This document shows, in pieces, positions 25,141 to 34,049 of a stretch of DNA of 64,000 nt. Origin of the DNA: Gammaproteobacteria bacterium UBA6940 (GTDB lineage Bacteria; Pseudomonadota; Gammaproteobacteria; Pseudomonadales; UBA6940); assembly GCA_002450655.1 (NCBI GenBank), contig DJZY01000076.1, positions 49,594 through 113,593 of the forward strand, written 5' to 3'. Position 1 is the first letter of the stretch. Every line of letters begins with the position of its first letter. The notes under the pieces were generated by a model. The model was not told the DNA's origin and searched no databases. It saw only the letters and a program-made list of their open reading frames with translations. Made by a program: the position numbers and the translations under genes.

Positions 25141-25893
25141 ATGACAACTAATAGTGCCAACTTATCTACTAGCCCAGACTTTTGGAAAATAGCGCATCCA
25201 GTTTTTTCCGAGAATGAAAACTGTACCCATTTAAAGCGAGTCACAGCTCTTCCAGCAGCTCATACGCCTTGTTCTCGATATAATACTCATAGACGAGTAC
25301 AGAGCAGTCCTGAAGAACTTATGCGTCATACAAGTGATTTTAAAGCGCAGTTCTTTAGTGCATTGCCAAGTGGTAAAGGTGTTGCTCAAAAACGCTTTAC
25401 CTTACTACTAGCACCTCCATTAATAGATACTCGTGGCGAATCTGATGATGAGAGTGTCTTTAGTTCGACTGAATCATTACCTGTAAATAGTGAGAATCAA
25501 TCAAGAGTATCTCTTATGTCGGGGCCTAGCTTTGTTAATGTGTCCCCTTGGCAATCAAGTAGCACTCTCGATCTTTTGGATGCTGAAAGTCTAGATAGAG
25601 ATCTGAGTACAGATAAGATAAAAGCAATTCCCGATTTGAAAACGGAACCAACTAAAGGCTATTTAGAGAGTATTAGTGAAATAGCCACATCTTTTCTACG
25701 TACGCTGAAATCGATAGTTCAAGATCGCTTTCCTGAGTTTTCCCTTTTTAGCCAAGTGTCTGAGAAGGCTGTAGATACTCCGAGTCTTCAAACTCAGCAA
25801 AATCATGAAATGCAAACAACAAGACCGAGAACACCACAATTTTTTTTAGCATCAATTAAACCTCTAGATTTATCTGATTTTTATAATTTTTAA
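25141..25893 (+). CDS. hypothetical Ser/Thr-rich protein (orphan, effector-like)
   Basis: 250 codons, low-complexity and Ser-rich, with no domain motif. Very AT-rich flanks. Confidence 0.5.
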   Translation: MTTNSANLSTSPDFWKIAHPVFSENENCTHLKRVTALPAAHTPCSRYNTHRRVQSSPEELMRHTSDFKAQFFSALPSGKGVAQKRFTLLLAPPLIDTRGESDDESVFSSTESLPVNSENQSRVSLMSGPSFVNVSPWQSSSTLDLLDAESLDRDLSTDKIKAIPDLKTEPTKGYLESISEIATSFLRTLKSIVQDRFPEFSLFSQVSEKAVDTPSLQTQQNHEMQTTRPRTPQFFLASIKPLDLSDFYNF

Positions 25894-25977
25894 CTAAAAA
25901 GGATAAATAAGCTTAATTAATTCTTAAAAATTAAAAGTGTTATAAAGTTTCATTCTATCATGCTGCTATTCTTATAA

Positions 25978-26136
25978 ATACCCATAGCGATTGTGTTTTA
26001 GGTGTAAAAAGCGCCTCATGAAGTTGCTTAGCAAGGCGCGACAACGCAGCATAGCCATTCTATGTAAGGCGTCGCAACACCGCTAAGCAACTTCATGTGG
26101 TGAGAGAGATACCAAAAATTCAAACGCTATGGGTAT
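25978..26136. repeat. 159-bp compound palindrome (nested inverted repeats) just upstream of the flotillin operon
   Basis: Outer 12-bp IR: ATACCCATAGCG (25978-25989) with CGCTATGGGTAT (26125-26136). Inner 16-bp IR: CATGAAGTTGCTTAGC (26017-26032) with GCTAAGCAACTTCATG (26082-26097). The two stems are separated by symmetric 27-nt unpaired segments. Confidence 0.7.
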
Positions 26137-26168
26137 AAGTAGTAGGGCAAGGAGATGCATCAGCATTA

Positions 26169-26849
26169 ATGCCCAGCAGCAATGATATGGATGTACAGAT
26201 GCTTGCAATTCTTCTCAGTTCTAAAATGGACCCTTTTTACAGTATTATTGGGTCCTTTCCAACCGCGATTTGGACTTTTTTTCTAGGTATATTTCTCTTT
26301 TATTGGGTTGTTGCTGTTTTAGGCTTTGTTTCCATTGATCTTATTGATATGGATGTTGAGCCAGGGCAGTCAACCCAGGGCATGAATGCTTTAGTCGGCC
26401 TGTTTCTTCGTTTTGGTCTTATTGGTGTGCCACTTACTATTAGCTTAACTATTGTAAGTACCATTGGCTGGTTCCTTTCTTTTTTCTCCATTTATTTCAT
26501 GCCTGAAAGTATTCAAGGCACATTTCTCATTTGGCCAGTAGGGCTCGTTGTTCTTTTTATTACAGGATTTATTGCTTTGTGGGCAACTGGTTATATTGTA
26601 AAACCTTTAGTTCGTTTTTTTCAAAATACGCGAGCAAATTCAAGGCATACATTTGTAGGTACACAAGCTCGTGTACGCACATCTAGAGTTGATGCATTCT
26701 TTGGTGAGGCCGAAATTGTCGATGGTGGCGCAGGGCTTCTCGTACAAATACGTTGCTTCGATGAAAACACATTAACAATTGGTGATGCTGTGGTTATTTT
26801 GGAATATGACCAAGAAAAGCATTTTTATAGAGTTTCTGCATTAGATTAA
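26169..26849 (+). CDS. YqiJ/NfeD-like inner-membrane protein (DUF1449-like, C-terminal OB/NfeD fold)
   Basis: Four or five TM helices followed by a soluble tail, GTQARVRTSRVDAFFGEAEIVDGGAGLLVQIRCFDENTLTIGDAVVILEY. Sits directly upstream of a flotillin gene, as in E. coli yqiJK. Confidence 0.7.
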   Translation: MPSSNDMDVQMLAILLSSKMDPFYSIIGSFPTAIWTFFLGIFLFYWVVAVLGFVSIDLIDMDVEPGQSTQGMNALVGLFLRFGLIGVPLTISLTIVSTIGWFLSFFSIYFMPESIQGTFLIWPVGLVVLFITGFIALWATGYIVKPLVRFFQNTRANSRHTFVGTQARVRTSRVDAFFGEAEIVDGGAGLLVQIRCFDENTLTIGDAVVILEYDQEKHFYRVSALD

Positions 26850-26873
26850 TTTGTTATTGGAAAAGGATAAATC

Positions 26874-28778
26874 ATGGCTGATTTAACGGTATTATCTGGC
26901 GTCGGTATTGCGCTTCTCTCTGTCTTTTTACTTTTAGTAGGTGTGGCTGCTTTATATAAAGCTTTTTATTATAAGGTGGAACAGGGTACGGCTTTAATTG
27001 TGAATGATATGAGTGCGACGCCAAAAGTACACTTTACTGGTGCTATGGTTTATCCGATCGTTTATAAAAAAGAATTAATGCGAATTTCTTTGATTACCAT
27101 TGAGGTGGATAGAAGAGGGAAAGATGGGCTGATTTGTGCTGATAATATGCGGGCAGATATTACTGTTGCATTTTATCTTCGTGTGAATGAAACCGTTGAA
27201 GATGTTTTGAAAGTAGCCAAATCAATAGGTGCTGATCGTGCATCAGATAAAATGGCTGTTAATGAATTATTTAATGCAAAGTTTTCAGAGTCACTAAAAA
27301 CAGTTGGTAAGCAAATTGATTTTGTAAAACTGTTTGAAAATCGTCAAAGTTTTCGTGAAAAAATTATTGAAGTGATCGGTAACGACTTAAATGGCTATGT
27401 TCTTGAAGACGTGGCAATCGATTACCTTGAGCAAACACCTAAGCATGCATTAGACCCAAATAATATTCTTGATGCAGAGGGTATTCGTAAGATTACTGAA
27501 TTAACAGCAGCACAAAATGTTGAAACCAATATTTTAGAGCGTAATGAAGAGCTTGCGATTAAGAAAAAGAATGTAGAAACACGTGAAGCCATGCTGGCTT
27601 TAGAGCGTCAAGAGGCTGATGCTGAGGCACGACAAGAACGTGAAGTGGCGAGTATTCGTGCTCGAGAAGAGGCTGAAACTAAGAAAGTGCAGGAAGAGGA
27701 ACGCCAAAAAGCAGAATCAGCAACTATCGATGCTGATCAAGCCCTTGCGGTAATGCGTGAAAATCAAAAACGTGAAATTGAAGTTGCAGAGCAAAATCGT
27801 CAACGTGCCGTTGTTATTGAGATTGAGCGTGTTCAGCGAGCGAAAGACTTAGAAATTGTTTCCCGTGAGCGTGAAGTTGATATCCAGCGTATTGAAGCAG
27901 AAAAAGCCGTTGAGGTTGAAAAGAAAGAAATTGCTAATGTTATTCGTGAGCGCGTTGCAGTTGATAAGACAGTTGCAATTGAAGAAGAGCGTATCAAAGA
28001 AGTACGTGAAGTCTCTGGCGCTGATCGTGCGAAGCAAGTGCAAGTTCTTGCTGCCGAAGCCATTGCTGAAGAACAAAAAGTAAAATTTGTGAAAGAGGCT
28101 GAAGCGCAAGAAATTGCAGCGAAGCATAGAGCATTTGAAATGACAACAATTGCTCAAGCGCAATTCGAGGCAGATGAGAAGAAAGCAGAAGCCTTGAAAG
28201 TGATGGCTTTAGGTCGTAAGGAAGAAGCGGCAGCGGTTGGCTTGGCTGAGGCACAAGTACAATCAGCTAAAGCAGACTCCCTCGAAAAAGAAGGACGCGC
28301 TGAAGCTTCAGTTATTCAAGCCAAAGGTGAAGCACAAGCGCATGCAGATCGAGACACTGGTATGGCTGGAGCGGAAGTCACAGCGGCACACTTTAAAGCG
28401 GAAGCTGAGGGCTTAATTGAAAAATTCAATGCAATGAACACCATGAGTGTTGATGCGCGCTCTCATGAAGAGTATCGAATGGGGCTTGAGATTGCACTTA
28501 AAGAAGCATTGGCAACGATTGATGCAGGTACTCTAATTGCTAAAGAAAATGCTGAGGTGCTCGCAAAAGCCTTAAGTACTGCCAAAATTGATATCGTTGG
28601 TGGCGAAGATCACTTCTTTAATAACTTTGCTAAATCATTATCCATTGGTAAGGCTGTAGATGGGCTAGCTGATAAGAGTAGTACTATTACAAACCTGTTG
28701 AGTCATTTTTTAGAGTCATATTCGAAGAATAAAACTCTTGCAGATAATTCCAAGGATCAACAAGCAGCAGGTGAATAA
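26874..28778 (+). CDS. flotillin-family SPFH/band-7 protein (YqiK-like)
   Basis: N-terminal TM hairpin, SPFH core (ISLITIEVDRRGKDGLICADNMRADITVAFYLRV) and a long E/A/K/R-rich coiled coil. AAAGGA lies 8 nt upstream. Confidence 0.9.
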   Translation: MADLTVLSGVGIALLSVFLLLVGVAALYKAFYYKVEQGTALIVNDMSATPKVHFTGAMVYPIVYKKELMRISLITIEVDRRGKDGLICADNMRADITVAFYLRVNETVEDVLKVAKSIGADRASDKMAVNELFNAKFSESLKTVGKQIDFVKLFENRQSFREKIIEVIGNDLNGYVLEDVAIDYLEQTPKHALDPNNILDAEGIRKITELTAAQNVETNILERNEELAIKKKNVETREAMLALERQEADAEARQEREVASIRAREEAETKKVQEEERQKAESATIDADQALAVMRENQKREIEVAEQNRQRAVVIEIERVQRAKDLEIVSREREVDIQRIEAEKAVEVEKKEIANVIRERVAVDKTVAIEEERIKEVREVSGADRAKQVQVLAAEAIAEEQKVKFVKEAEAQEIAAKHRAFEMTTIAQAQFEADEKKAEALKVMALGRKEEAAAVGLAEAQVQSAKADSLEKEGRAEASVIQAKGEAQAHADRDTGMAGAEVTAAHFKAEAEGLIEKFNAMNTMSVDARSHEEYRMGLEIALKEALATIDAGTLIAKENAEVLAKALSTAKIDIVGGEDHFFNNFAKSLSIGKAVDGLADKSSTITNLLSHFLESYSKNKTLADNSKDQQAAGE

Positions 28779-28780
28779 GC

Positions 28781-31700
28781 GTGACTGAAATCAAAGATTC
28801 TGGTGGTTCTTTTGATGTAATCCGACAACGTTTGGCGCAGCAGTGTGAGCAGCTGCGCCAAGAAACTGATCGAGTTAATCAACAACGTTTAGCACACTTT
28901 GGTCAATCAGAAATGAAAATTTTTGGTCGTACTCGGGTGCAAACTGAAAATAACTGCATGTCTCGTGATATTGTCCAGCTTGGAGATATGCTGTTATTTG
29001 GTTATAACGTTTTTATAGGGTTAAAATCAGAAACTTTGGTTGGCGATGTTTTTTCTCTTTATAAGAATAATAAAAAAGAGAGTACGTTTGAGTTAGAACC
29101 TATTGCTATAGAAGAAAGTTTTTTAAAAGACTCGCGCTTTCAGCAGGATTTTTCAGAGCTTTATAAATATTATAAAAACACAAAGCTCATCCAGTTAATT
29201 GTTCAACATCAAAAACTTTTAATGGCTTTTCAAATTGGTGAAAGGCGCGAAGATATTCGTGTTTTTCGTTGGCATGTTTCCCCTCAAGGCTTTGTGCAAG
29301 ATTATATTGATAATCGTGGTGAAAGAGACTTGCAGCCACCGCCAGCCCATGATTTTCAATGGACTTTGCTTGGACGTGAGAATCAAGTGCTTGGTCGCTT
29401 TCCACATATCAATATTGAAGATGAAATCTTTGTAGAAACAACCGGTGGTGATTTAACAATAAAAATTGAAAATAACACTTTATCAGGAGAGGGTGTTTAT
29501 GCTGAACCAGTTGAGGATGCAACTCAATCTTTAGATGATGCCTCATTTGCCTATGCCAAATCTGGTCGCCTTATTCTTCTTAAAATACGCCCTTATCGTG
29601 AAGAGACTTGGCGCTATCTTGTTTACAACCGTGATCTAAAAACAGTGGTTCGTTTAGACGCTATAGGTGAATCCTGTGTTGCCTTGCCAGAAGATCATGG
29701 CATTATTTTTCCTGGTGGATATTATTTAAATTCTGGTGAGTGGCGAACTTTTAATGAAACGAATGACGGTTTCTTTTTTCAGCGTAAAATAGTATCCCCA
29801 AATGGCGAAGATATTCTGTACATTTTTTATCATAATGATGATGGTCAAGTAGGGTTATTAACCTATAACCTGATTGAGAAAAAAATTAAAAACCCAATTT
29901 ATGCTCATGGCTATGCGTTGGCAGCAAATGGTGATCTACTTCTCTTTTCAAGTGAAGGTGAAGCTGCTCGCCAGCATCCAATGCAGTTATGGCAAACCCC
30001 TTTTTATGATGCAGCCTCTCAGATAACAGAAGAGAGCGATAGTCTGTTAGATAGAATTGGTAACTCTGAAATGGTGCGCTGGATCTCAGAGCTTTTAAGT
30101 GTTTGCCGTGTTCTTGAAATGAAGACAATCAATGAATCTCTTTTTGTGCAGGTGCAAGATCAGTTAAGACGTCTTTTTGATCAGTATCTATGGTTAACCG
30201 AAGAAGAGTTTCGTGAAACTTCGGCCCTTCTCAATACTTTGCAAAGTACAATTCAAACCCTGCTTGATGAATATGAAAAACAAAAGGCAATAATGGCCGA
30301 GTCAGCCAAATTGCTTAATAGACTGCTAGAAGATGTTGAACCGCTTAAATCCAAAGCAGCATCAGCACCAAATGAAAATGCAGAATACAATGCCACTCTT
30401 TTATCAGAGATTCGTCACATGCGAGGTCGCTGTATTGGCTTACAAGAACGCCGTTATGTTGATAAAGATGTTTTAAATGAGTCAGAGACTGTCTTGAATG
30501 AGCTTGAAACTAATGTTGCTCAAATTACTGTAGAAGTGCTCGCAAAACCTGATGCTTTTAAGATCTACACTGCAAAACTGCCAGAGTTAAAGCTGAACGT
30601 TGAAACAGTGACAAATGTGCTTGATCTTGAGCCTATTCAAACTCAAATTGAAGAGACTGCAAATGGGTTAGGGCTTTTATCTGATTTGGTTGCAAGCCTT
30701 GAAACCAAAGATGTTCAACTGAAAACAAATATTATTGCTCAGCTTTCAAAAATCTACGCAGAAATTAATCAGCTCCGTTCTTTTGCCGAAAAACAAAAAA
30801 AGAATCTACGCTCCAGTGAAACTAAAGGTGAGTTTGCTGCACAGCTGAATCTTTTTACGCAAAGTATTGATTACGCATTAAGCCAATCAGATACCATAGC
30901 TTCAACAGATGCAGCTTTTTCAAGATTGATGCTTCAGCTTGAGAATATGGAGTCTCAATTTGGAGATCAAGAAGAATTTCTTGTGGAACTCATGACTCAG
31001 CGTGAAGCTGTTCTGAGTGTATTTGAAGATCATAAGCAACAGCTTTCGCAAGCTTTACAGCAAAAAGCACTAAGGCTAACAGATGCTGCTAAACGTTTAC
31101 TTAAAACCATAGAAAATAAAGCAGCAGCCTGTAAATCAATTGATGATTTGAACACTATTTTTGCATCAGATCAGCTTGTCATAAAAGTCAAAGAGATGAT
31201 TGCACAACTGTTTGAGCTTGAAGCCAGTGTGCAAGCAGAAGATGTGTCTTCAAGCTTAAAAGGTGTTCAAGATAAAACTATTCGGCAGTTAAGAGATAAA
31301 AGTGATCTTTATTCTGAAGGTGGCAATCAAATTCAGCTGGGACGACATGCCTTCTCAGTGAATAGCCAAGAGTTGAATGCGATTATTGTGAATCGCAATG
31401 AAGAGCTGTATCTGCATTTAACCGGTACAGACTTCTATGAAAAAGTTGATGATCCTGTTTTTAATTCATTAAAACCTTTTTGGACGCAATCTCTTATTTC
31501 TGAAACGAAAGATGTGTATCGAGCAGAATATCTTGCATGGATGTTTGCTCTCGAGCATCAAGGCATGGAATACAGCGATGATATTGAGGTGTTAACTGAG
31601 AAGGTCGCTCAGTTTGCTTCTAGCCGCTACTCAGAAGGGTATATTAAAGGCATTCATGACACAGATGCTGCACGTATTTTTAAAGCAATGAGAGAAAGTG

Positions 31701-34024
31701 AGCAGCATGCCGATGGTCAAGATTTTCATAGCCTTGCTCGTGCTTATGGGGCTCTTTTTCTTGTGTATGCCAAAGACCATGAGCAAGTATTTGATATCTG
31801 GCTGCAAAAGGCAGCAAACGCGTATTCTGTAAGAGAGCACTTTTCATCGAAAAAGTTACAGCTTTCTTTGGCTGCTGATGTAGCTCCTCTGGTAGAGTGT
31901 TTTTTTGAAGTGCAAGGCTTTGCTACTGACTACCAAGGTGCTGATCTTGTCTCTATCTCTGCAGACTATGTCGCATTTGAACTTGTTCGGTGCAAAGGGC
32001 AATTATCAGAAATTAGCCTTGTTGTGAGTCATGAAGTGCCTGTACTGTTCGAGCAATTTAAAAAAGAGCTCCAAGCAGATGTATGGCTACAGCTCGACGC
32101 TATGTTTAAATCAATGCGTCATCAAGTTTCAATGGCATGGCATGATTGTTGGACTATCTGTTCTCAGTGGATAGAAGTATGGAGTAATGCTACTTCACGA
32201 CAAATAAAGCCTGCATTGGTTGATGAGCTTTTAATGTATATTTTGCTGAATACTGATATCTCATTTAGAACATCTTCTTTTGATATGACCCTTGTATTGG
32301 AGAATTTAGCTGGTGAGCATGAGCTGGCATCTGATACTTACAGTGTTCATTTGGCAGATTTTAAATTAAAGCTTATTGATCACGTGCAACGAGTTGTTCC
32401 AGGTTATAAAACATTTCAAGCGCAACGACATGAGTATTTAAAACAAGCTGAGCAACGCTTACGCCTCAGCCAGTTTAAACCCAAACCTTTAACAAGCTTC
32501 GTTAGAAATAGACTTATTAATGAAGTCTACCTGCCTATCATTGGCGATAACTTGGCAAAACAAATGGGTGCGTCAGGCGCTGGGAAGAGAACAGACCTAA
32601 TGGGTTTACTCATGATGATATCTCCACCTGGTTATGGTAAAACCACCTTAATGGAGTATGTGGCAGATCGACTCGGTCTGATCTTTATGAAAATTAATTG
32701 TCCATCCTTAGGGCATAGTGTTACATCTCTCGATCCATCTCAAACAGCAGATTCTACTGCTAAACAAGAGCTGGTGAAATTAAATTTAGCCCTGGAGATG
32801 GGCTCAAATGTGATGCTTTATTTGGATGATATACAGCATACGAATCCTGAGTTTTTACAGAAGTTCATTTCACTTTGTGATGGTACTCGTCGAGTTGAAG
32901 GTGTATGGAAGGGTGAAACCAAAACTTATGATATGCGCAGTAAAAAATTCTGTGTGGTTATGGCTGGTAACCCATACACAGAATCTGGCGAAGTGTTTAA
33001 AATTCCTGACATGTTAGCGAACCGTGCGGATATTTATAATCTTGGCGATATCCTTGGTGGTAAAGATGAGCAGTTTGCTTTGAGTTATATCGAAAATGCA
33101 ATGACTTCAAATGCTGTATTAGCTCGTCTTGCAACAGGTGAGCAAGATGATATTCATGCATTAATTAAAATGGCACAGGGGAAACTTGAGGTTACAAGTC
33201 CGCTGAAGCAAGACATAGGTTTAGCGGAACAGCAAGAAATGATTTCTGTTCTGCAAAAAATGTTGATGATTCAGCAGGTCGTATTAAAGATTAACCAAGC
33301 CTATATAGCCTCAGCTGCTCAAAATGATCAGTATCGTGTACAGCCTTCGTTTAAGTTGCAAGGCAGCTATCGTAATATGAATAAAATGACTGAAAAAGTC
33401 ACATCTGTTTTAACTGAGCAAGAAATGAATCAACTTATCGATGATCATTACATTGGCGAAGCACAGCTATTAACAACAGGTGCTGAAGATAACCTTTTAC
33501 AGTTTAAAGCCATGCGCAATACACTTACAGAGAAAGAGCAGCAACGTTGGCAGCAAATCTGCGAGGATTATTTACGCAATAAGGCAATGGGTGGGGCGGA
33601 TTCTGACGTAGGGCAAAAGATTGTCGTACAACTTATGGATCTTGTGAAAAGCATGCAGCAGGTTTCAAACCTCAGTAAAGATCACTCAACAGCACAGCAT
33701 CGCCAACAGGCATCTTATATGAAGGCAAGTCATGCAGGACAGATGCTGCTGGTTGAACATATAAAAGAAATTAAAGATGTCATACATCTACTTGGTACGC
33801 AAATTAGTGAGTCAAAACCAGAGCTGCCTACGCCTCATATTGAACTTATTAATCAACCAATTCCTGAAATTAAGGCTTTGCTTGGTGCTTTGGCGGGGAC
33901 AATAGAGCATTCACTTTCGCCCTTAGTACGGAGTCTCGATAAGAAAATGGAGTTAGACTTAGATCACAACCGTAAGCTTATTGAGATATCTCAACAGTTG
34001 AAAGATTTATCTCAAGGTACGTAA
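28781..34024 (+). CDS. giant (1747 aa) protein with a single C-terminal AAA+ P-loop module; function unknown
   Basis: GTG start 2 nt after the flotillin stop, with AGGTGA upstream. Walker A SPPGYGKTTL (32621-32650). Walker B VMLYLDD (to 32830). Sensor/Arg-finger-like NPYTESGEVFKIPDMLANRADIYNL. About 1250 aa upstream carry no motif I recognise. Confidence 0.85.
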   Translation: MTEIKDSGGSFDVIRQRLAQQCEQLRQETDRVNQQRLAHFGQSEMKIFGRTRVQTENNCMSRDIVQLGDMLLFGYNVFIGLKSETLVGDVFSLYKNNKKESTFELEPIAIEESFLKDSRFQQDFSELYKYYKNTKLIQLIVQHQKLLMAFQIGERREDIRVFRWHVSPQGFVQDYIDNRGERDLQPPPAHDFQWTLLGRENQVLGRFPHINIEDEIFVETTGGDLTIKIENNTLSGEGVYAEPVEDATQSLDDASFAYAKSGRLILLKIRPYREETWRYLVYNRDLKTVVRLDAIGESCVALPEDHGIIFPGGYYLNSGEWRTFNETNDGFFFQRKIVSPNGEDILYIFYHNDDGQVGLLTYNLIEKKIKNPIYAHGYALAANGDLLLFSSEGEAARQHPMQLWQTPFYDAASQITEESDSLLDRIGNSEMVRWISELLSVCRVLEMKTINESLFVQVQDQLRRLFDQYLWLTEEEFRETSALLNTLQSTIQTLLDEYEKQKAIMAESAKLLNRLLEDVEPLKSKAASAPNENAEYNATLLSEIRHMRGRCIGLQERRYVDKDVLNESETVLNELETNVAQITVEVLAKPDAFKIYTAKLPELKLNVETVTNVLDLEPIQTQIEETANGLGLLSDLVASLETKDVQLKTNIIAQLSKIYAEINQLRSFAEKQKKNLRSSETKGEFAAQLNLFTQSIDYALSQSDTIASTDAAFSRLMLQLENMESQFGDQEEFLVELMTQREAVLSVFEDHKQQLSQALQQKALRLTDAAKRLLKTIENKAAACKSIDDLNTIFASDQLVIKVKEMIAQLFELEASVQAEDVSSSLKGVQDKTIRQLRDKSDLYSEGGNQIQLGRHAFSVNSQELNAIIVNRNEELYLHLTGTDFYEKVDDPVFNSLKPFWTQSLISETKDVYRAEYLAWMFALEHQGMEYSDDIEVLTEKVAQFASSRYSEGYIKGIHDTDAARIFKAMRESEQHADGQDFHSLARAYGALFLVYAKDHEQVFDIWLQKAANAYSVREHFSSKKLQLSLAADVAPLVECFFEVQGFATDYQGADLVSISADYVAFELVRCKGQLSEISLVVSHEVPVLFEQFKKELQADVWLQLDAMFKSMRHQVSMAWHDCWTICSQWIEVWSNATSRQIKPALVDELLMYILLNTDISFRTSSFDMTLVLENLAGEHELASDTYSVHLADFKLKLIDHVQRVVPGYKTFQAQRHEYLKQAEQRLRLSQFKPKPLTSFVRNRLINEVYLPIIGDNLAKQMGASGAGKRTDLMGLLMMISPPGYGKTTLMEYVADRLGLIFMKINCPSLGHSVTSLDPSQTADSTAKQELVKLNLALEMGSNVMLYLDDIQHTNPEFLQKFISLCDGTRRVEGVWKGETKTYDMRSKKFCVVMAGNPYTESGEVFKIPDMLANRADIYNLGDILGGKDEQFALSYIENAMTSNAVLARLATGEQDDIHALIKMAQGKLEVTSPLKQDIGLAEQQEMISVLQKMLMIQQVVLKINQAYIASAAQNDQYRVQPSFKLQGSYRNMNKMTEKVTSVLTEQEMNQLIDDHYIGEAQLLTTGAEDNLLQFKAMRNTLTEKEQQRWQQICEDYLRNKAMGGADSDVGQKIVVQLMDLVKSMQQVSNLSKDHSTAQHRQQASYMKASHAGQMLLVEHIKEIKDVIHLLGTQISESKPELPTPHIELINQPIPEIKALLGALAGTIEHSLSPLVRSLDKKMELDLDHNRKLIEISQQLKDLSQGT

Positions 34025-34028
34025 AAAT

Positions 34029-34049
34029 AAAGCATTGTGCATGCTTTTT
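34029..34049 (+). terminator. intrinsic terminator closing the three-gene operon
   Basis: AAAGCAT-tgtgc-ATGCTTT followed by TT, starting 5 nt after the stop codon. Confidence 0.7.

Follow-up and report, generated by a model that had tools for sequence, protein, structure and literature searches.

A flotillin, a YqiJ-like protein and a giant AAA+ protein: a probable abbreviated bac operon in an uncultured gammaproteobacterium

The stretch of DNA that we analysed, 64,000 nucleotides (nt) from Gammaproteobacteria bacterium UBA6940 and referred to throughout as the window, hosts three genes on the + strand that encode a YqiJ-like membrane protein, a flotillin and a giant AAA+ protein. We call these three genes the trio. 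Coordinates are counted within the window unless another locus is named, and the labels BacC, BacD and BacE come from the bac operon of Pseudomonas aeruginosa, with which the trio is compared below. The genes, and the ribosome-binding site of the third, are as follows (aa, amino acids).

26169-26849, + strand: BacC/YqiJ-like membrane protein, open reading frame of 226 aa, ATG start
26874-28778, + strand: BacD/YqiK-type flotillin, open reading frame of 634 aa, ATG start
28781-34024, + strand: BacE-type giant AAA+ protein, open reading frame of 1747 aa, GTG start
28769-28774, + strand: AGGTGA, ribosome-binding site of the giant gene, read from the sequence, inside the end of the flotillin gene

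The open reading frames confirm what an earlier note on this DNA had reported, namely three same-strand genes separated by 24 nt (YqiJ-like to flotillin) and 2 nt (flotillin to giant). The sequence likewise confirms that the GTG of the giant comes right after the flotillin stop (TAA, 28776-28778) and has its own AGGTGA, 6 nt away. The GTG at 28781 is the earliest possible start 3' of an in-frame stop. It is a credible start, because conservation among orthologues of the giant begins at G8 and continues from there on.

The order of the three genes is conserved far beyond the window. We sampled one genome per species and kept the best 80 of at least 421 confirmed loci encoding relatives of the giant; the linkage to flotillin was counted in those that have 1.9 kb or more of DNA upstream (n=75). 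A flotillin orthologue (47-76% identity) is found directly upstream of the giant, on the same strand, in 74 of these 75 testable loci, and because of this recurrence the order cannot be put down to chance. A YqiJ-like gene in turn precedes the flotillin nearly wherever further DNA suffices, with no match in two loci (L037 and L076). The same-strand order of YqiJ-like gene, flotillin and giant recurs on replicons of four phyla, among them the Bacteroidota, Actinomycetota and Deinococcota. Across 66 loci the three proteins have correlated pairwise distances (r = 0.89-0.90), as expected of a unit that is inherited together. The proposal that the giant is a third partner of the SPFH/YqiJ pair is therefore well supported by linkage conserved across phyla, the synteny of the giant with flotillin and YqiJ genes being strongly positive.

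The more distant relatives were found by tblastn on plasmid records. On a Hymenobacter replicon the order is a Tir-type chaperone, PspA, a DUF1449 protein, a 722-aa protein and the giant; on a Streptomyces replicon it is a 144-aa protein, a flotillin and the giant; and on a Deinococcus replicon a 198-aa protein, a 652-aa protein and the giant. The megaplasmid pQBR103 of P. fluorescens SBW25 (L085, 53-11187) carries yjfKLMC-like polyamine genes followed by a 217-aa protein, an SPFH protein and the giant. These yjfK/L/M/C-like genes belong to the DUF2491, DUF350, DUF1190 and glutathionylspermidine synthase families, with the trio directly 3' of them, and pQBR103 combines on one plasmid two types of PspA-associated neighbourhood reported by Ravi et al., whose work is described below.

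The tight spacing of the window is not part of this conserved pattern. Elsewhere the gap between flotillin and giant has a median of 118 nt and can reach 2 kb, with small genes inserted in several lineages. The 2-nt junction is particular to the window and translational coupling is not conserved. The earlier note had gone from translational coupling to a stoichiometric complex, a step that does not hold: because the tight junction is not conserved, a fixed stoichiometry cannot be argued from it. In many Pseudomonas loci a gene of ~80 aa is located between flotillin and giant, with weak, sub-threshold matches to TerB and EF-hand; in other lineages it is found elsewhere in the locus.

~9030-9860 in L031, L034, L035, L040, L041, L045, L046, L050, L054 and L066, and 7629-7877 in L081: the ~80-aa gene

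For the 226-aa and 634-aa proteins of the window, direct scans of Pfam, NCBIfam and PADLOC returned nothing usable, permissive thresholds included, and we therefore took the identities of both from scans of orthologues and from hhalign. Hardly any member of this flotillin/YqiJ subfamily is picked up by the Pfam models Band_7, Flot, NfeD and YqiJ or by those of NCBIfam. Searches of PDB sequences with the single proteins and with the family profiles of both also gave no relevant match. Nevertheless, the identities first given to the two genes, YqiJ/NfeD-like and flotillin, are upheld by the hhalign comparisons with E. coli YqiJ and YqiK.

The 634-aa protein has an N-terminal transmembrane segment, an SPFH domain (~aa 32-200, 26967-27473), a long Ala/Glu-rich coiled coil and a flotillin-like C-terminus. 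An alignment of 20 flotillin sequences matches E. coli YqiK with a probability of 99.9% (E = 5.5e-34, 32% identity over 392 columns), and the aligned columns span the transmembrane segment, the SPFH domain and the coiled coil. Among the 20 orthologues, three match Pfam Band_7 (best E = 1.2e-7) and one matches Flot. Close homologues are publicly named 'YqiK' or 'flotillin family protein', and the protein at the BacD position in P. paraeruginosa (PaFlo3 in strain PA14) is 64% identical. That the 634-aa protein is a YqiK-type flotillin is strongly indicated by these comparisons. An AlphaFold2 model of it (25 sequences, ~75% identity) had a mean predicted local distance difference test score (pLDDT) of 55, with the SPFH domain below 50, and was not used for the fold search. 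A C-terminal 'IDIVGG' motif was considered as a hallmark of ATPase-linked flotillins and dropped, as the C-terminal pattern of E. coli YqiK is comparable.

The 226-aa protein has three predicted transmembrane segments, an acidic loop and a C-terminal beta-rich domain (~aa 160-224, 26646-26840), and its family alignment shows a conserved transmembrane/OB-like pattern. The family matches E. coli YqiJ by hhalign (92% probability, E = 6.3e-7) over the last transmembrane segments and the beta-rich domain. Two of 20 orthologues match Pfam YqiJ_N weakly, the Deinococcus equivalent has a weak NfeD match (E = 0.0024), the Hymenobacter orthologue carries the annotation DUF1449 (YqiJ family), and the P. 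paraeruginosa protein at the BacC position is 35% identical. This moderately supports a YqiJ-like protein of the YqiJ/YuaF type with three transmembrane segments.

Like yqiJ-yqiK of E. coli and yuaF-floT of B. subtilis, the window has a YqiJ-type gene followed by a YqiK-type gene, and the gap is 24-26 nt in both the window and E. coli. In E. coli K-12, however, nothing like the giant follows yqiK, and in contrast to the known SPFH-NfeD pairs the proteins of the window have diverged beyond the reach of the Pfam models Band_7, Flot and YqiJ. Taken as a whole, we regard the identification of the trio as a flotillin-YqiJ-AAA+ operon as very probable.

The giant itself matches DUF3686, DUF7902, AAA_5 and AAA in Pfam, and can be divided as follows.

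28853-30187, + strand: N-terminal DUF3686 domain, aa 25-469 (Pfam E = 2.2e-187)
30191-31360, + strand: coiled-coil region, aa 471-860 (coiled-coil label from PMC11237479)
30551-30802, + strand: DUF7902 within the coiled-coil region, aa 591-674 (Pfam E = 1.6e-18)
31361-32470, + strand: middle, mostly helical domain without recognisable relatives, aa 861-1230 (AlphaFold2 block with pLDDT mostly 80-90)
32471-33160, + strand: single AAA+ module, aa ~1231-1460 (AAA_5 29.1 bits, AAA 27.3 bits, above the cut-offs)
32621-32647, + strand: Walker A, SPPGYGKTT, within the AAA+ module
32813-32830, + strand: Walker B, MLYLDD, within the AAA+ module

At least 3488 homologues of the giant exist, the best match after an identical protein from a metagenome-assembled genome (MAG) having 48% identity. 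The P. paraeruginosa protein at the bacE position is 46% identical over aa 8-1745. DUF3686, a region of beta-propeller repeats according to Ravi et al. (PMC11237479), is carried by 666 clusters at 50% identity; among the matches listed it is near the N-terminus in nearly all representatives, and the full-length ones have ~1600-1930 aa.

Besides the Walker motifs, the AAA+ module has an AGNP sensor-1-like motif and a LANRAD arginine motif. In an alignment of 10 sequences, among them the Hymenobacter, Streptomyces and Deinococcus proteins, SPPGYGKTT, LDDIQH, AGNPYTE and LANRAD are invariant in the sampled sequences of four phyla. The identity of the AAA+ core is 82-83% between the window and Cellvibrionales, 73% between the window and Deinococcus, and 73-83% even across distant phyla. 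The invariant motifs and this very strong conservation argue for the giant being an active ATPase, a prediction made from the sequence. The translated giant has no obvious transmembrane segment or signal peptide, which fits a cytoplasm-facing flotillin of the YqiK type.

The structural comparisons are less specific. A profile search of PDB with the AAA+ core gave matches limited to ~35-45 residues round the P-loop of p97, NVL and RuvB. An AlphaFold2 model of aa 860-1747 has a mean pLDDT of 69.6 and is usable in part only; its fold matches are headed by the MoxR ATPases NorQ and CbbQ, interleaved with Clp, Skd3 and MCM, all with E > 1e-3. All 50 PDB fold matches listed are AAA+ ATPases, and none can therefore be assigned to the middle domain.

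The trio was initially proposed to be an uncharacterised, undescribed system. The literature shows otherwise. Ravi et al. (2024, mSystems, PMC11237479; preprint 2020) described, by comparative genomics, an operon of CesT/Tir-PspA, a band-7/flotillin protein, a YqiJ/YuaF protein with three transmembrane segments and a novel AAA+ protein, sometimes also with a PLD hydrolase, and noted abbreviated operons with only the flotillin, YqiJ/YuaF and sometimes the AAA+ ATPase. In P. aeruginosa the operon is known as bac, for 'biofilm-associated cluster' (PA3732-PA3727; PA14_16140-16200). Mace et al. (2008, PMC2587700) defined bacA (PA3732, DUF2170), bacB (PA3731, PspA-like), bacC (PA3730) and bacD (PA3729), and PA3731 accumulates on osmotic shock (PMC2587700). 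Wallart et al. (2024, PMC10948618) added bacE and bacF and showed by reverse-transcription PCR across every junction that bacABCDEF are co-transcribed; BacB-F are up 6-13 fold in a bacA mutant. Published inducers of the operon are osmotic shock, biofilm growth and phage infection. BacD has also been named PaFlo3, and PA14_16160 a 'short NfeD' (PMC13086221). In the sister species P. paraeruginosa the genes run in the order DUF2170 (206 aa), PspA (231 aa), YqiJ-like (213 aa), flotillin (688 aa), giant (1746 aa) and a PLDc_2 protein (235 aa). From these positions and the label 'PA3728 ATPase' we infer that bacE is the giant and bacF the PLD gene.

Compared with bacABCDEF, the trio has the same order, its YqiJ-like protein corresponding in position to BacC (~35% identity), its flotillin to BacD/PaFlo3 (~64%) and its giant to BacE/PA3728 (~46% over the full length). 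It differs in that bacA, bacB, bacF and a sigma-54-like site are missing, the genes are far tighter and the giant is unusually diverged. Compared with the operon of Ravi et al. (PMC11237479), abbreviated form included, the three protein architectures are identical and there is no difference in kind: the window is one more instance, from an uncultured gammaproteobacterium. That work gives neither a mechanism nor statistics for the linkage of ATPase and flotillin, for which the figure here is 74/75. The trio is a divergent, minimal example of a known system.

How minimal the window is can be judged from the partners found elsewhere. A DUF2170-PspA pair, both assignments confirmed by Pfam, is found beside the trio in 55 of 81 loci. 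Other partners are a downstream rhomboid gene (37 loci), a small TerB/EF-hand-like gene (27) and a PLD-like gene (bacF; PLDc_2 E = 1e-29), located after the giant in its 24 loci. In the 64-kb window, tblastn with two DUF2170 and two PspA queries found neither, and no BacF/PLD, rhomboid or small TerB/EF-hand-like gene was detectable; the gene downstream of the giant encodes a DUF2383 protein, not bacF. A search of 25565-26416 for the sigma-54 site TGGCAC-N5-TTGCA, allowing up to 3 mismatches, found none. Because DUF2170 and PspA are absent from the window and present in 55 of the 81 loci, the trio is an abbreviated form of the operon that lacks the CesT/Tir-PspA pair. It is not alone: ~17 further loci lack the pair, including Paraglaciecola/Glaciecola, Thiotrichales and a zetaproteobacterium. 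In L077, L079 and L080 (Marinobacter) and in L024 the DUF2170-PspA pair is divergent from the trio, which shows that the two are separable units.

The giant of the window has diverged more than its neighbour would lead one to expect. At a flotillin identity of 72-80%, giants are 56-74% identical in 212 other orthologue pairs and 46.5-48.7% identical in the 15 pairs of the window. The excess divergence is located in the coiled coil (39% vs 69%), the region with the largest shortfall relative to the other pairs, and in the middle domain (29% vs 50%), with the AAA+ core kept. Loss of the PspA pair by itself probably does not account for this, because the giant of another locus without the pair, L011, clusters among Cellvibrionales giants.

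Some further features of the window lie on either side of the trio.

25978-26136: imperfect palindrome of ~160 nt, with arms at 25978-26032 and 26082-26136
34029-34048, + strand: weak hairpin and T run, possible intrinsic terminator of the operon

The palindrome is the sole large inverted repeat of the window and folds with -79.9 kcal/mol (z = -12.3). Two copies with 92.7-93% identity are found on TARA Oceans scaffolds (L087, 1191-1355, and L088, 625-782), which have nothing else in common with the window and show no trio genes in the 6.4 and 1.5 kb around the copies. An Rfam search of the region upstream of the operon found no family, only a chance-level match. A large palindrome does therefore exist upstream, as had been noted, but it is a dispersed repeat and not a feature of the operon, and it looks like a miniature inverted-repeat transposable element (MITE) or a repetitive extragenic palindromic (REP) element. 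The idea that it regulates the operon was rejected on account of the near-identical copies in unrelated contigs.

A terminator had also been placed directly after the giant. A hairpin followed by a T run is indeed present there, with 7 bp, 2 of them G-C pairs. It folds with only -4.9 kcal/mol (z = -0.6), 54 of 200 shuffled sequences fold equally well, and a consensus terminator scan did not report it, as it falls below the criteria of that scan. As a terminator of the operon the hairpin is plausible and weak. The neighbouring genes of the window are of the housekeeping type, with an RluA-family pseudouridine synthase, DbpA and an orphan 250-aa open reading frame upstream, and DUF2383, DUF484 and DapF downstream. 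The 250-aa open reading frame (25141-25893) is directly upstream, with the palindrome between it and the operon. Neither Pfam nor NCBIfam recognises it, none of the 81 related loci has an equivalent, and it may be an orphan gene or no gene at all.

What might the trio do? We favour, as the reasonably probable reading, an envelope-stress module: an abbreviated bacCDE operon in which a cytoplasmic AAA+ machine would remodel a flotillin/YqiJ scaffold. The YqiJ-like protein would anchor and nucleate an oligomeric scaffold of the YqiK-type flotillin at the cytoplasmic face of the inner membrane. The giant may dock on this scaffold or, in loci that encode PspA, on PspA polymers, via DUF3686 and the long coiled coil. 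Under membrane stress, a ring of its AAA+ modules would then spend ATP on building, reshaping or taking apart the scaffold, or on pulling clients out of it. The proposed action can be likened to that of Vps4 on ESCRT-III, or of FtsH inside the HflK/C cage. For the scaffold-remodelling class of mechanism, taken separately, the case for and the case against seem to us evenly balanced.

In HflK/C-FtsH an SPFH scaffold works together with an AAA+ ATPase; FtsH is a membrane-anchored protease, and the SPFH domains of HflK/C are periplasmic. The trio shares with it an SPFH scaffold and an AAA+ ATPase. It differs in that the giant has no protease domain or obvious transmembrane segment and that a YqiK-type flotillin should be oriented towards the cytoplasm. 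The pairing of ESCRT-III/PspA with Vps4 is similar in that the module is linked to a gene for PspA, a member of the ESCRT-III superfamily, in most loci, and the ATPase could recycle a membrane polymer. In contrast to the Vps4 type, the giant has no MIT domain by Pfam and combines DUF3686, a coiled coil and a middle domain with one AAA+ module, and the window has no PspA.

Several observations weigh against this envelope-stress reading. In one locus, L028 (9950-15184, a Methyloprofundus MAG), the giant is found without a flotillin or YqiJ gene within 10 kb upstream. This is the sole testable exception to the linkage, and the neighbours of its giant are on the opposite strand; it could be a genuine solitary giant, a rearrangement or an assembly artefact. 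Without paFlo3, biofilm was reduced by just ~20% and all other properties tested were unaltered (PMC13086221). The equation of bacE with the giant is drawn from gene order and the 'PA3728 ATPase' label, not from a sequence printed in the bac papers, which do not treat the architecture of BacE. Neither the sequence profiles, which reach only the Walker A region of classical AAA proteins, nor the fold matches, all weaker than E = 1e-3, assign the giant to an AAA+ clade. As the window has no PspA, any action directed at PspA would need a gene outside the 64 kb. Finally, no reported experiment has shown physical contact between giant and flotillin or a phenotype of the giant.

Another explanation, which we find unlikely, is that the giant is a MoxR-like maturation chaperone that loads or inserts a cofactor or client into the membrane at flotillin platforms and does not itself remodel the scaffold. 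AAA_5 is its best Pfam AAA match, and NorQ and CbbQ are its best fold matches. The motif series DDIQH...AGNPYTE...LANRAD presumably resembles the DEINR...ATQNP...LDRF of MoxR proteins. Those fold matches are weak, though, with a target-normalised template modelling score (TM-score) of 0.31-0.36, and interleaved with Clp, Skd3 and MCM as described above, while the Walker A region of the giant resembles that of classical AAA proteins. MoxR-type ATPases such as NorQ and CbbQ have ~250-300 aa and VWA partners, whereas here one module is embedded in 1747 aa and no VWA-domain partner turned up in the examined genes of these loci.

Anti-phage defence by abortive infection, in which a membrane scaffold senses infection and a giant NTPase (with a PLD effector in some loci) executes the response, seems quite unlikely to us. 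Every phage-infected P. aeruginosa sample shows up-regulation of PA3728-PA3732 (PMC12041424), but such induction is equally shown by the classical Psp-type stress response. The PLD-like bacF that follows the giant in 24 loci could act as an effector, and is missing from the window. None of the three proteins has a PADLOC match at E <= 0.01, and the recurrent partners, PspA, a CesT-like chaperone, rhomboid and polyamine genes, point to envelope homeostasis instead. The earlier note had argued for a core envelope function that is not mobile, and that argument is supported only in part: the flanks in the window are of the housekeeping type, and neither these nor the flanks of most other loci are defence islands, but the module is also found on megaplasmids of four phyla, and its patchy distribution in Pseudomonas has been attributed to horizontal transfer (PMC13086221), which is what a defence system might show.

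That the giant is a DNA-repair ATPase, its membrane-gene neighbourhood being incidental to its function, is very improbable: it is suggested by the name, i.e. the single line with which Pfam describes DUF3686 ('ATPase involved in DNA repair') and the matching label 'DNA repair ATPase' or 'DNA repair protein' of annotation pipelines, and by the weak RuvB matches over the Walker A region, and is opposed by a Pfam scan with no DNA-binding, nuclease or helicase domain, by RuvB and p97 matches that cover ~35-45 P-loop residues only, by the near-obligate linkage to flotillin and YqiJ-type genes across phyla (74/75 loci), by the co-regulation of the giant with PspA-type genes, and by a literature search that found no paper using the term DUF3686. 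Nothing that we tested supports the label.

To return to the envelope-stress module, a further and more tentative idea is that the trio without PspA is a self-sufficient, ATP-driven machine for the assembly and disassembly of flotillin scaffolds, with PspA/CesT, PLD and rhomboid as add-ons. We think this possible and rather doubtful. If true, the giant would be the first known flotillin partner that consumes energy, and this could explain the slight phenotypes of lone flotillin deletions. The fast-evolving coiled coil and middle domain of the window's giant, with its intact AAA+ core, might then be a docking surface that was re-tuned after the loss of the PspA pair.

The value of the window itself is limited, as it is one divergent, minimal example, although it shows that the trio can be kept in the absence of the PspA pair. 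The analysis also supplies a quantified linkage between giant and flotillin; the remaining interest lies in the biochemistry of a known operon. Bacterial flotillins have been widely studied, yet their mechanism is unclear and deletions often do little, and a giant, highly conserved AAA+ ATPase whose gene nearly always neighbours that of one flotillin subfamily offers an experimental handle on them. The link to PspA, a member of the ESCRT-III superfamily, suggests that the module may be a bacterial counterpart of ATP-driven membrane-remodelling systems.

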